Assembly (NCBI GenBank): GCA_963806175.1
Contig: CAWDXA010000011.1
Location: 602,065 to 666,064 of the forward strand
From: an uncultured Chloroflexia bacterium
Lineage (GTDB): Bacteria > Chloroflexota > Limnocylindria > Limnocylindrales > CSP1-4
Reading direction: 5' to 3'
Length of the DNA stretch: 64,000 nucleotides
The notes under the pieces were generated by a model that was not told the origin of the DNA, searched no databases, and saw only the letters and a program-made list of their open reading frames with translations. The number at the start of each line of letters is the position of its first letter. Position 1 is the first letter of the stretch. This document shows, piece by piece, positions 3,879 through 7,059 of this stretch. Made by a program: the position numbers and the translations under genes.

Positions 3879-4894
3879 ATGGCGGACGCCGCGGCGCGAG
3901 CGATCGAGCTGGTCGAGGCGGCGGTCGACGGCGATCGGCGCGCGCTGGCACGACTGCTGACGGCGGTGGAGAACCGCTCGGCAGTCGGCGAGGCGGCCCT
4001 GCGGCGGCTGTACCCGATGGCCGGCCGGGCGCATCTCGTCGGGATCACCGGACCGCCGGGCTCGGGCAAGTCGACCCTCGTCGCGGCATTGATCGGCGAG
4101 GTCCGCCGGGCGGGCCGGACGGTTGCGGTCATCGCGGTCGACCCGTCGAGCCCGATCACGGGCGGGGCGCTGCTCGGCGACCGAGTCCGCATGCAGGCAC
4201 ATGCGTCCGACGACGCCGTGTTCATTCGATCGATGGCGTCGCGCGGCCATGCCGGCGGACTGGCGTCGACGTCGACGTCCGCCGCGGCCGTCCTGGACGC
4301 CGCCGGCTTCGACCTGATCCTGATCGAGACGGTCGGGCACCGGGCAGAGCGAGGTCGAGGTGGCGGCTGCCGCCGACACGACGGTCGTGCTGGAGGCGCC
4401 CGAGATGGGCGACGAGATCCAGGCGATCAAGGCCGGCCTGCTCGAGGTGGCCGATCTCGTGGTGGTCAACAAGGGCGACAAGCCGGGCGCCCAGCGCACC
4501 GCGGCGCAGCTCCGGGCGATGCTGGTGGCCGGGGCGGGACGCGATGCAGATCCGTCTCGGGCCGGCCGCCCGCGACCCGAAGCGGCCCGAGGTGATGATC
4601 ACCACCGCCGCGACCGGCGACGGCGTCCCCGAGCTGCTGGCGGCGCTGGACCGGCTTCGCATGGACGGCGCAGGCGGTGCCGGTCGTGCCGGGCAGGACG
4701 GACGGCTGACGCCGGCGCGGCTGGCACGTGCCGAAGCGCAGGTCTGGGCGGTCGTGGCCGATCGGGTCCGGGCGCGGCTCCACGATGCCGTCCGCGGGCC
4801 CGACGACCGCCGAGACGCTCGCGGAGGTCGCGGACCATCGACTGGATCCGTACGCGGCGGCCGACCGGCTGCTCGGAGCCTGGGCGGGGAGTAG
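3879..4894 (+). pseudogene. meaB: MeaB/ArgK-type methylmalonyl-CoA mutase-associated GTPase, at least 3 frame shifts
   Basis: It has Walker [15 protein letters not shown] (break ~4345), VVVNKGD (NKxD) and a C-terminal [16 protein letters not shown]. The pieces sit in the frames of ORFs 3879, 4360, the tail of 3389 and 4728, with breaks at ~4345, ~4540 and ~4790. The stop position is uncertain. Confidence 0.85.
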
Positions 4895-4970
4895 CGGGCC
4901 CGGAGGCAGGCGCGCCGTCGCCGGCACGCCGGAATCCCGCGGCGCCGCCCACGGTCGCTGGCACGCGGAT

Positions 4971-5075
4971 GTTCCTATTGAAGAAGGACGGCGTGTTGGC
5001 GGCGACGTCCGACCCCAGTTGGTGCCCGACTGTGCCAAACGACTGCTGGGCTCGTCCTCCTTCGTCGATTGGAAC
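4971..5075 (+). mobile_element. Copy 1 of a ~105-bp element bounded by imperfect terminal inverted repeats (MITE-like, hypothetical)
   Basis: The left end is GTTCCTATTGAAGAAGG. The reverse complement of the right end is GTTCCAATCGACGAAGG (14/17 match). The internal GGTGCC-N4-TGTGCC-RAACG block is shared with copy 2. Confidence 0.4.
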
Positions 5076-5092
5076 GTCTCGGTTCCATGAGG

Positions 5093-5211
5093 GCTCGGCC
5101 GCGGCAGGGCTCGGTGGCGGCGCTCGGCCGCGGCAAGGCTCGGCCGCGGCAAGGCTCGGCGGCGGCGCTCGGCCGCGGCAAGGCTCGGCCGCGGCAGGGC
5201 TCGGTGGCGGC
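5093..5211. repeat. Tandem minisatellite with 45-bp period, about 2.6 copies
   Basis: It is built from a 16-mer GCTCGGCCGCGGCARG (A) and a 13-mer GCTCGGYGGCGGC (B) in the order A B A A B A A B. Each A carries the palindrome GCCGCGGC. It is intergenic, downstream of both meaB and the XRE gene. Confidence 0.9.
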
Positions 5212-5235
5212 CGGGCCTGGCCCTCGTCGCGACCC

Positions 5236-5910
5236 TCAGAGAAACACGATCGAGTCGCCGCCTGGGTCGCGACCCCCGGCGAGCGCGGCAAGTGCAGCGC
5301 GCGTGGACATCGGGAAGCGGGCTCGAATGGCTGGGTACTCCGCGACGACCCGGCGGTTGTGGCGAGTGTCAGCGACCAGCAGGAGCAGTCTCGCGAGCTG
5401 CAGGTCGCGCTGCTTGGCGCTGAGCCGGCGCTCGAGGGCCTGGAGATCGTCGATGCGAGTCTCGGCCTCGATCAGCAACGCGACACCGTGTCCGTCGATG
5501 ACCGCGTCGGCGCTGCGCAGGTCGCCGGCAATGGGGATCGGCACCTCGGTTCGCCATCGGAGGTCCGGTCCCAGGCGCTTGCGAAGCCGCTCGAGGAGCG
5601 CGACGTGGGCGGTATCGCGGACCGGATCGCCATCCGGGTAAAGCGCAGTGGACAACTGGAGGCCGAGTACCGCCGCGATCCGCGCGGCCAGCTCGATCGT
5701 CAGTTGGCGCGCCTGTCCGCGTTCGACGCGCCCGATCTGCGTGTGCGAGACGTGGATTCGCCGAGCGAGCTCGCGCTGGCTCATCCCGGCACCTCGACGC
5801 GCGACGCGGAACTCGGCCACCAGCCGGGCAACGAGGAAGCGTGCTCGCTGTGCGCCGCGGTCGACCCGACGTTCGTAGACAGGCATCACGGCCATCTTCA
5901 GCTGCACCAC
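5236..5910 (-). CDS. XRE-family HTH protein with a C-terminal domain of unknown function (possibly nuclease-fold)
   Basis: ORF 5236..5910 has the HTH MSQRELARRIHVSHTQIGRVERGQ. The C-terminal ~130 aa has an acidic pattern (DAVIDGHGVALLIEAETRIDD). The alternative start Met9 is at 5886. Confidence 0.8.
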   Translation of the reverse strand: MVQLKMAVMPVYERRVDRGAQRARFLVARLVAEFRVARRGAGMSQRELARRIHVSHTQIGRVERGQARQLTIELAARIAAVLGLQLSTALYPDGDPVRDTAHVALLERLRKRLGPDLRWRTEVPIPIAGDLRSADAVIDGHGVALLIEAETRIDDLQALERRLSAKQRDLQLARLLLLVADTRHNRRVVAEYPAIRARFPMSTRAALAALAGGRDPGGDSIVFL

Positions 5911-5943
5911 TCACCCGGCGATTACCCGATCTCGGCCGTCGCC

Positions 5944-5959
5944 GGAACCTGCAGGTTCC
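5944..5959. promoter_or_regulatory. Perfect palindrome GGAACC-TGCA-GGTTCC, 34 bp upstream of the XRE start (candidate operator)
   Basis: The 16-bp perfect palindrome was read directly. A related GGAAC-N6-GTTCC occurs at 5071-5086. Confidence 0.35.
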
Positions 5960-6060
5960 AATTGACGGCCGATAGGCGTTGCGCTGCGACTACGGGCGCC
6001 GTCCGGTGCCGGTGTGTGCCGAACGGCCGTCGGAGCGCGCCGACCTTCAACGATTGGAAC
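5955..6060 (+). mobile_element. Copy 2 of the ~105-bp inverted-repeat-bounded element (MITE-like, hypothetical)
   Basis: It starts GTTCCAATTG and ends CGATTGGAAC. It has the same orientation and length (106 vs 105 bp) as copy 1, with roughly 60-65% identity over the right two thirds by hand alignment. Confidence 0.4.
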
Positions 6061-6174
6061 CGTGGGGTGCCACTGGCGCGGGACCGCCCTCGCGAATGGA
6101 GGCGGCCGGCTCGGGCGGTCCGAGGCGGCGCTCACGTTCCGTGGCGCCGCGCCCGACCGCGTACCATCGTGTTC

Positions 6175-7059
6175 ATGCCAAGGTCCATCGAGCGGGTCTT
6201 CGTGGCGGGCGCGGGGCTGATGGGCCACGGCATCGCCCAGGTACATGCCGCCGTCGGCCTGTCGGTCGTCCTGTACGAACCCGAGCTGGCACGGGCGGAG
6301 GCCGGCCGGGAGCGGATCGCCGGCAACCTGGAGCGGGCGGTCGTCAAGGGCCGGATGAGTGACGAAGAGCGGGACGCCACACTCGGCCGCATCTCGCTCG
6401 CGGACGACCCGGCCGCCGTCCAGGACGCCGACCTCGTGATCGAGGCCGTCTTCGAGGACGTCGACGTCAAGACTGCGCTATGGCGCGAACTCGACCAATT
6501 GGCGCGGCCCGACGCCATCTTCGCCTCGAACACGAGCTCGATCTCGATCGGCCGGCTCGTGGCGGCGGTGTCGCCGGCCCGGCGCGAGCGGTTCGTCGGG
6601 ATGCATTTCTTCAGCCCCGTGCCGGTCATGCCGCTGATCGAGCTGATCCGTGGCGCCGAGACGGACGGCCCGACGGAGGCGGCGATCCGTGGGCTGGCGA
6701 CGCGCCTCGGGAAGCAGGTGATCGTGTCGGCCGACCGGCCCGGCTTCATCGTCAACCGGATCCTGATGCCGTTCCTCGGCGAGGCGATGCGAGCCTTCGA
6801 GCAGGGTCTCGGGACGGCCGACGATATCGACACCGGAGCCCGGATCGGGCTGAATCACCCGATGGGTCCGCTCGAGCTCGCCGACTTCATCGGGCTCGAC
6901 GTCTGCCTTGGGGTCATGCGCGTCCTCGACGACGGACTGGGGGGCGAGCAGTTCGCGCCGCCGCAGGTCCTCGTCGACCTGGTGGCGGCCGGCAATCTCG
7001 GCCAGAAGACGGGCCGCGGCTTCCACGCCTACCCGCGGCCGGAGCGGGCCGGCCGGTGA
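6175..7059 (+). CDS. 3-hydroxybutyryl/3-hydroxyacyl-CoA dehydrogenase
   Basis: ATG 6175 gives MPRSIERVFVAGAGLMGHGIAQ (NAD fold), NTSSISI, HFFSPVPVMPLIELI and GFIVNRIL. It is the intact C-terminal part of ORF 4360..7059. Confidence 0.9.
   Translation: MPRSIERVFVAGAGLMGHGIAQVHAAVGLSVVLYEPELARAEAGRERIAGNLERAVVKGRMSDEERDATLGRISLADDPAAVQDADLVIEAVFEDVDVKTALWRELDQLARPDAIFASNTSSISIGRLVAAVSPARRERFVGMHFFSPVPVMPLIELIRGAETDGPTEAAIRGLATRLGKQVIVSADRPGFIVNRILMPFLGEAMRAFEQGLGTADDIDTGARIGLNHPMGPLELADFIGLDVCLGVMRVLDDGLGGEQFAPPQVLVDLVAAGNLGQKTGRGFHAYPRPERAGR

Follow-up and report, generated by a model that had tools for sequence, protein, structure and literature searches.

A dispersed palindromic repeat family and a predicted XRE-nuclease gene at the meaB-hbd locus of a Limnocylindrales bacterium: a possible module with REPIN/RAYT-like logic

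In the REP/REPIN-RAYT systems (REP, repetitive extragenic palindromic sequences; RAYT, REP-associated tyrosine transposases), a gene of nuclease type is flanked by repeats that are also dispersed elsewhere in intergenic regions, each RAYT clade has its own repeat variant arranged in inverted palindromic units, and the genes have a vertically inherited look, with repeats that are lineage-specific (PMC3116915, PMC3337134, PMC5581495). Here we describe a locus of comparable layout in a stretch of 64,000 nucleotides (the window) from an uncultured Chloroflexia bacterium of the order Limnocylindrales (contig CAWDXA010000011.1, positions 602,065 to 666,064), in which two repeat arrays, el1 and el2, flank a minus-strand gene for a protein of the XRE family between the genes meaB and hbd. 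We propose, with a probability of about 0.55, that el1 and el2 represent a lineage-specific dispersed repeat of ~130 bp, that the gene between them encodes a helix-turn-helix (HTH) nuclease recognising this repeat, and that all three form one inserted module following REPIN/RAYT-like logic. This reading draws directly on the repeat family itself, the insertion polymorphism of its copies, the adjacency of gene and repeats, the co-variation of recognition helix and half-site, and a conserved nuclease-like signature in the protein.

The module matches the logic of REP/REPIN-RAYT and is not a member of it, given that protein, site type and copy number differ. Shared features are a gene flanked by its own dispersed intergenic repeats, clade-specific variants of these repeats, inverted palindromic units, and genes that occupy clade-conserved loci, seemingly by vertical descent, with repeats that are lineage-specific. 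Unlike the RAYTs, which are Y1 HUH tyrosine transposases (IS200/IS605-like), the present protein combines an XRE HTH with a PD-(D/E)xK-like domain. Unlike REP sequences, which are hairpins of 20-40 nt carrying a GTAG/CGTC tag, its sites have the look of double-stranded dimer operators, with 6-bp half-sites, an N6-N9 spacer and no tag. Finally, in contrast to REPINs, the units are triplets of fixed spacing (61/50 bp or 72/63 bp), they are abutted by minisatellites, and they number tens of copies rather than hundreds.

The source assembly, G000, comprises 3.29 Mb in 14 contigs (71% GC, 76% completeness); other G-numbers denote its relatives, L-numbers denote loci, and C-numbers after a genome denote contigs. 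Homologues of the window's proteins are labelled Chloroflexota. The two arrays and the gene between them are as follows.

4959..5087, plus strand: el1, a 129-bp array of three palindromes (direct reading, pattern statistics, alignment with el2, nhmmer family search with E=1e-36)
4959-4976: el1-H1, TGGCAC-gcggat-GTTCCT
5020-5037: el1-H2, TGGTGC-N6-GTGCCA
5070-5087: el1-H3, TGGAAC-gtctcg-GTTCCA
5236..5910, minus strand: open reading frame of the XRE gene, encoding an HTH (residues ~37-86) and a restriction-endonuclease-like domain of ~125 aa (~95-224)
5888..5942, minus strand: putative promoter/leader of the XRE gene, with GGGTAATC (5920-5927, minus strand) and GGGTGAG (5910-5916)
5943..6072, plus strand: el2, a 130-bp array (direct reading, alignment with el1, pattern statistics, nhmmer family search)
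5943-5960: el2-H1, CGGAAC-ctgcag-GTTCCA, containing the perfect 16-bp palindrome GGAACCTGCAGGTTCC
6004-6021: el2-H2, CGGTGC-N6-GTGCCG
6055-6072: el2-H3, TGGAAC-cgtggg-GTGCCA

The decamer GTTCCWATYG has four matches in the window, at 4971 (plus), 5066-5075 (minus), 5955 (plus) and 6051-6060 (minus), all of them at element ends, against a shuffle expectation of 0.04; none of 100 shuffles reached four. Between the outer decamer edges el1 measures 105 bp and el2 106 bp, both on the plus strand, and the two similarly oriented ~105-bp elements recognised in the initial annotation are thus real and non-random. Both ends of both elements carry a palindrome, so that the units extend to 129 and 130 bp. 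The GGAAC-N6-GTTCC palindromes that the annotation took to abut the elements are present but are part of them, with outer half-sites at both ends, and the internal GGTGCC/TGTGCC block that it described is common to el1 and el2 and is actually a third palindrome, H2, weaker than the outer ones. The general unit design consists of three palindromes TGGMAC-N6-GTKCCA, with centres 61 and 50-51 bp apart in both elements. The inner arms of el1 reach GTTCCTATTGAAGAAGGA / TCCTCCTTCGTCGATTGGAAC, and the inward arms of the el1 and el2 units are longer, comprising GTTCCAATCGACGAAGG and its complement. Features of the kind found in miniature inverted-repeat transposable elements (MITEs) are present as well, namely inverted ends TGGAAC-Nx-GTTCCAAYCGNCGAAGGA, element lengths of 130-190 bp and multiple copies. 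The first array is situated where meaB and the XRE gene converge with their 3' ends; the second separates the divergently oriented XRE gene and hbd, a position at which G009 and G066 carry a homologous array.

A whole-genome search with a profile made from three copies identified at least six copies in G000 (el1 to el6), all intergenic, in agreement with the idea of a multi-copy family; the weakest profile match is el6 (E=0.022), in which four half-sites are visible by eye. All four solo copies (el3 to el6) are missing from the orthologous spacers of the relatives compared. Thus, el3, which lies between glnS and an LCP gene, is missing from the glnS-LCP spacer of G016 and G013; el4 and its minisatellite are missing in G016, G013, G009, G066 and G055; the flanks of el5 meet at a clean empty site in G016; and el6 is missing in G013. 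The strict pattern TGGNAC-N6-GTNCCA is not enriched in G000 (4 matches, versus 2-3 for other spacings), and all four matches fall inside elements. Most solo arrays have one or more genes downstream of them, copies are oriented either way with respect to the genes around them, and el1 and the L084 array sit between convergent genes, where a promoter is not expected.

The insertion point of el5 (G000:C3:346296-346560; L004, ~1470-1760) lies between the stop codon of the preceding gene and the promoter region of a tRNA gene (GGGGCTATAGCTCAGC...), and el5, together with a small GGCGGAGCGTTG repeat, directly precedes this gene, which has a conserved upstream box, CTGATATACTCC.

The genes on either side of the arrays are the following.

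3903..4894 (start approximate), plus strand: meaB, left flank (tblastn of the G016 MeaB protein against the window)
6175..7059, plus strand: hbd (3-hydroxybutyryl-CoA dehydrogenase), right flank of the insertion

Elsewhere in the genus, other species have these two genes adjacent or overlapping: the hbd start overlaps the meaB stop in G013 and G016, and the spacer is 40-50 bp in G062, G059 and G071. Judged by this comparison, the meaB-hbd operon of G000 is interrupted by what appears to be an inserted module, as had been suggested for a cassette in this gene block. The initial annotation had also considered that an absence of further copies, combined with a meaB-hbd spacer conserved in relatives, would point to a regulatory region; additional copies do exist and the spacer is variable. 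The XRE block is found between meaB and hbd in G000, G009, G066, G065 and G047, and its patchy distribution on the hbd tree requires several gains or several losses.

Arrays of related design are found throughout the genus. In G021 and G072, TGGAAC-N7-9-GTTCCA sites form triplets with spacings of 63 and 72 bp (24 and 20 sites, respectively, and 0 for the reversed-pattern control); of 61 genomes, only 6 have the pattern in abundance, with up to 24 palindromes in any genome searched. Copies within the same genome are alike in their spacers as well as in their half-sites, and this likeness, together with the fixed geometry, indicates that they are related by descent or duplication and are not independently (convergently) evolved sites. 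The G021 and G072 arrays are absent from the orthologous sites of G000, one array site is common to G021 and G072, and the genes neighbouring the arrays differ between species. The exact two-ended el1/el2 pattern gave no match in 40 relatives, and the idea of a species-specific element, based on this result, was dropped because the family is genus-wide with other spacers and half-sites. A TGGTCC pattern, whose background of matches is high where DNA is GC-rich, showed no enrichment in G047, for which it had been designed, and revealed a second family in G072.

At L090 (G072:C3:168650-169450), a TGGTCC-type array directly adjoins a TGGAAC-type array, so arrays of different families cluster or insert near one another. 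L078 (G021:C8:535270-536620) contains 1.3 kb of extra DNA relative to G000 between two conserved genes, with a DinB-family gene beside a TGGAAC array, showing that arrays can border small variable gene insertions. In G000 itself, a 76-bp tandem repeat with TGATGCA...TGCATCA motifs (C3:203595-203860) is followed by a 14-bp x 5.7 minisatellite; by its half-site, which is as that found beside the SRSQ-type homologues described below, it may be a third array family of this genome.

The arrays recur beside homologues of the XRE gene in G009, G066, G008, G072, G050, G070, G024 and G041 and on unrelated metagenome contigs. They lie on both sides of the gene in G000 (el1/el2), G009, G066, G008, the second paralogue of G072 and contig L113. 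The sequence of the recognition helix changes together with the half-site of the accompanying array, as listed here.

Helix SHTQ: half-site TGGAAC/GTTCCA, for the window's protein and the clade 51-53% identical to it
Helix SHQT: TGGTCC-N7-GGACC, for the second G072 paralogue, which has arrays of this variant on either side; the variant also forms solo arrays at six or more additional loci
Helix SRSQ: TGCATC..GATGCA, at homologue loci L026-L028
Helix SASQ: GTGCTACCGACG (GCTACC), in G021

That homologues have their own repeat variant beside them, with helix and half-site varying together, makes the protein a probable binding partner of the elements. This co-variation is the strongest evidence for the predicted binding to the arrays, and it likewise speaks against the initial annotation's picture of the XRE gene as passive cargo of a MITE-flanked composite.

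At four of the clade-B loci (L019, L021, L022 and L023, in four genomes), a conserved GAGGGCGGGTCGGGAG...GATTCTACGC precedes the XRE arrays; this stretch may mark where an RNA gene ends or belong to some other conserved non-coding element. At these loci the gene after the XRE gene is in every case one for a HAD-family phosphatase.

The XRE gene itself, placed on the minus strand between the elements by the initial annotation together with a minisatellite, is confirmed by a match to PF01381 (HTH_3; E=1.4e-11, residues 37-86), in keeping with a five-helix domain of this type. Homologues are typically 216 aa long, so that the start codon is probably the ATG at 5885-5887. For the C-terminal domain, Pfam, NCBIfam and PADLOC profiles and a profile search of PDB sequences matched the HTH only, and none of 32 family members had a Pfam match in the C-terminal ~125 residues. 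When the full-length AlphaFold2 model was compared with the PDB, the HTH dominated, with a fold like those of HipB, C.Esp1396I, ClgR and SinR, and the C-terminus was uninformative; a separate model of the C-terminal domain was therefore needed. This model (predicted local distance difference test 86.5, predicted TM-score 0.82) has the order alpha-beta-beta-beta-alpha-beta, with helices at 6-16 and 62-76 and strands at 23-26, 42-46, 49-56 and 80-85. Its top Foldseek matches in the PDB are mostly PD-(D/E)xK proteins, including R2 RLE, EcoT38I, Bax1, BspD6I, Hjc, Mus81, OkrAI, RecU and NucS.

Among 110 members, down to ~42% identity, D135, D155 and Q157 are 100% conserved and E122, E148, E150, K166, R132 and D169 are 91-99% conserved, yielding the signature E122, D135, E148-A-E150, Q157, K166. 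In the model, D135 directly precedes the second strand and E148/E150 lie on the third. D...ExE is the BamHI variant of the catalytic motif. Taken together with the predicted fold, the C-terminal domain looks restriction-type, of the PD-(D/E)xK superfamily with a BamHI-like D...ExE, and is a predicted nuclease. Clustered at 50% identity, the domain family comprises 875 representatives, and most of the 150 best-scoring ones listed share the ~216-aa architecture. In the genus it is patchily distributed and multi-copy (at most 14 matches per genome, some copies with stop codons or frameshifts), and its genes lie at conserved loci within clades. Neighbours at homologous loci include genes for a HAD phosphatase, an aminotransferase, an ABC transporter and an acetyltransferase, among others.

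Further members occur in G000. A paralogue of 41% identity (C7:182945-183577, minus strand, within G000:C7:182852-183990) has two GATCGCTCGGCGATC copies 162 bp apart upstream, and a decayed family member at G000:C11:1314386-1314900 consists of fragments with an internal TGA, followed by GC-rich short tandem repeats.

Upstream of the XRE gene, a motif GGGTAA/GGTGAG is found by eye 20-40 nt before the start codon in most homologues (20 loci), and the proximal half-site of el2-H1 lies ~16 nt further upstream of its match in the window. A scan for the sigma-70 consensus found nothing, so that the XRE promoter is a feature we infer. Given the proximity of el2-H1 to the conserved motif and the one clade of homologues with upstream-only arrays, autoregulation is likely.

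Minisatellites abut three of the six G000 arrays, well above the chance expectation. The one next to el1 is as follows.

5090..5216, no strand assigned: GC-rich minisatellite with a 45-bp unit (16+13+16) in 2.7 copies, Tandem Repeats Finder (TRF) score 226

It has a period of 45 with sub-periods of 16/29, is the strongest of ten tandem repeats that TRF found in the window, and starts 3 bp past the outer half-site of el1, ending 20 bp before the XRE stop codon. Across the whole of G000, TRF assigned scores of 100 or more to 71 tandem-repeat loci, three of which start 0-7 bp from the outer edges of el1, el4 and el6; the probability of such adjacency by chance is ~5e-6, or at most 0.003 if all are confined to intergenic DNA. 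A smaller minisatellite accompanies el5, the C7 paralogue is bracketed by two more of the 71 (15-bp x 6 and 33-bp x 2.4), and homologue loci in other genomes have them likewise.

From these data a mechanism can be outlined, in which DNA binding, catalysis, mobilisation and autoregulation are what we infer for the protein. The XRE HTH-nuclease would recognise the palindromes of the arrays, and the gene with its flanking arrays would be a single module, inserted between meaB and hbd. Its upstream array, el2, would probably act as an autoregulatory operator, with the proximal palindrome just upstream of the putative XRE promoter. Solo copies would be non-autonomous relatives of the flanking arrays, gained in the G000 lineage. 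Cutting or tight binding at the arrays could drive their duplication to new intergenic sites, and the same action could give rise to the abutting minisatellites via break repair or fork stalling; for both effects, the favoured route would be error-prone repair in the wake of nuclease-induced breaks or tight protein roadblocks. Stated in full, that a ~216-aa HTH-nuclease multiplies triplet arrays by break-and-repair, with minisatellites as a by-product, as a REPIN-RAYT analogue derived from a different nuclease superfamily, the proposal is tentative and has in our estimate somewhat less than an even chance of being right. No description of such a protein-repeat system was found in the literature searched.

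Several observations weigh against the proposed nuclease-repeat module. As to mobility, five empty-site comparisons gave no clean or fixed-length target-site duplication, and the single candidate is an imperfect ~15-bp direct repeat flanking the extra DNA at el5; none was recognisable at el1-el3, L081 or L077, and no defined element termini were found. We know of no route by which a PD-(D/E)xK nuclease would by itself reach strand transfer. The copy numbers (6 in G000, ~9-13 loci at most) are far below those of typical REPIN populations, and the hbd tree is too weak to tell whether the cassette was inserted repeatedly or lost repeatedly. As to the protein, the Foldseek matches are individually insignificant (E 0.02-1, TM-score 0.3-0.47). 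As to the pairing, the helix/half-site correlation rests on few independent clades; G021 holds its 24 TGGAAC sites in a well-preserved state and no clade-B/SHTQ gene was found in its 91%-complete assembly; no dispersed copies of the GATCGCTCGGCGATC palindrome were found for the C7 paralogue, which has local sites only; and in clade B the array lies upstream of the gene only, as an operator would, which fits a plain autoregulated repressor.

Some of these points would be expected if the protein were a plain transcription factor, that is, an autoregulated repressor or activator whose C-terminus serves only in dimerisation or as an effector domain, and if the arrays were triple operators serving its own promoter and a few target promoters, including those of hbd, glnS/LCP and the tRNA/leuS region. 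The location of el2's proximal palindrome directly ahead of the putative XRE promoter, the upstream-only arrays of clade B, the position of most solo arrays upstream of at least one gene, the low copy number and the local sites of the C7 paralogue are all consistent with such a regulator, and helix/half-site co-variation is expected of any DNA-binding protein. It would leave without explanation, however, that el1 and L084 lie between convergent genes, that shared spacers and fixed geometry point to duplication and not to convergence, that the four solo copies are lineage-specific insertions, that minisatellites adjoin the arrays, and that the genes beside the arrays vary by species; moreover, a mere dimerisation module does not need an acidic/Lys/Gln signature conserved at 91-100%. 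We regard this explanation as unlikely but as the strongest of the alternatives. A solitary restriction-like nuclease for defence or addiction, aimed at foreign DNA and controlling itself as C-box systems do, with solo arrays as by-products or decoys, is improbable. Sequence and fold do place the HTH closest to the controller proteins of restriction-modification (R-M) systems and to HigA/HipB antitoxins, a 237-aa PADLOC profile of Type II restriction endonucleases with an N-terminal XRE HTH matches weakly (E=0.0028, HTH only), the D...ExE signature is BamHI-like, and the distribution is patchy and multi-copy with pseudogenes. Like R-M controllers and HTH-fused Type II enzymes of the BamHI/OkrAI type, the system unites an XRE-type HTH, palindromic operators upstream of its own gene and a restriction-like C-terminal fold with an acidic D...ExE triad, the fold match being weak. 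Unlike them, it has no methyltransferase partner: its immediate neighbours are meaB and hbd, and neither a methyltransferase nor any other defence gene adjoins it. Its cognate sites are multiplied, unprotected, in the host's own genome, its operators come in triplets 50-72 bp apart and not as the two adjacent boxes of a C-box, its genes lie at clade-conserved loci and not in defence islands, and a defence role would not account for dispersed arrays of common descent with insertion polymorphism.

The composite cassette of the initial annotation, in which two copies of an ordinary MITE family, descended from some insertion sequence (IS), bracket an unrelated regulator by chance, has very little probability in our view. 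Inverted-repeat ends of ~30 bp, lengths of 130-190 bp, intergenic positions, presence/absence polymorphism and the possible direct repeat at el5 would all suit a MITE, and the elements resemble Correia, ERIC/IRU and Nezha in being 100-190 bp long, intergenic, polymorphic and sometimes beside promoters, with long terminal inverted repeats. In contrast to those elements, no parent IS or transposase is known and no consistent target-site duplication is seen, three protein-type palindromes lie inside, and there is a tie to a non-transposase gene family that recurs across many genomes and repeat variants. No transposase gene was found beside any array inspected, the whole-genome profile search of G000 returned short copies only, with no transposase-bearing relative, and a central third palindrome with fixed inter-site spacing is atypical of MITEs. 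Free-standing homing endonuclease genes (phage Seg/Mob; the PD-(D/E)xK enzyme I-Ssp6803I) are likewise small putative nuclease genes between conserved adjacent genes, patchy among close relatives and occasionally pseudogenes; unlike these, the present gene has its own site arrays around it and solo arrays at unrelated loci, and no cognate site was seen in empty meaB-hbd junctions. That the arrays act as structured RNA or single-stranded DNA, as hairpins, small RNAs, leaders or terminators, is hardly credible. Inverted repeats could fold, and on the plus strand the el1/el2 ends include one wobble-compatible T:G position, but an Rfam scan of 4500-6500 at E <= 1 gave no match, and RNAalifold on nine arrays gave a covariation term of -0.26 kcal/mol, with arm variation that breaks pairs without compensation. 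The arm variants TGGAAC, TGGCAC and TGGATC are independent on the two sides, a terminator scan found none and no terminator-like T-runs, and arrays occur in both orientations relative to neighbouring genes.

Other readings were discarded on sequence grounds. The ends TTGGAAC / GTTCCAA misfit the RYYYAAC...GTTRRRY core sites of integron attC cassettes, and no integrase is next to the block; a sigma-54/ECF promoter, a dif/Xer site and several known operator consensus readings were dropped since the sequences misfit.

If the pairing of nuclease and arrays proposed above is real, it would represent a second, independent origin of a resident nuclease that maintains its own intragenomic repeat population, a situation known so far, to our knowledge, only for RAYT/REPIN, and this in Chloroflexota, on whose repeats we know of almost nothing. 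It would also mean a large unannotated family of small sequence-specific nucleases, in which recognition helix and 12- to 26-bp target could be read side by side as a data set on the HTH specificity code, and a possible source of rare-cutting enzymes. The minisatellite association offers a testable bacterial model of site-specific breaks or protein roadblocks that seed tandem repeats. For annotation, the label "XRE family transcriptional regulator" may hide a protein that is not a simple regulator.

The left flank deserves a comment of its own. Compared with the intact 334-aa MeaB of G016, the window's meaB falls into four pieces in frames 3, 1, 2 and 3 (77-96% identity), with three frame changes within 1 kb, at ~4334-4336, ~4577-4581 and ~4789-4806. 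Either meaB has recently become a pseudogene or there are indel errors in the assembly, which is probably long-read; the 76% completeness of the 14-contig assembly fits the second explanation, and in view of these frame changes exact base counts in the assembly should be read with care.

On the right flank, a GTACCATCG motif stands 6-8 nt before the hbd ATG (window 6158-6177) in many species of the genus, whatever the upstream gene, with examples at L034, L040, L042, L043, L045, L046, L048 and L050. G013 and G016, in which hbd overlaps meaB, do not have it. The motif may be the -10 element of an hbd promoter whose transcript has a short leader or none.

G000 also has a separate family of dispersed repeats, at C11:172741, C11:517828, C11:1236598, C4:117114, C7:48506 and C7:52166; at each of these six loci a unit of 116-129 bp is present about twice in tandem, and the consensus sequences of the units are related.

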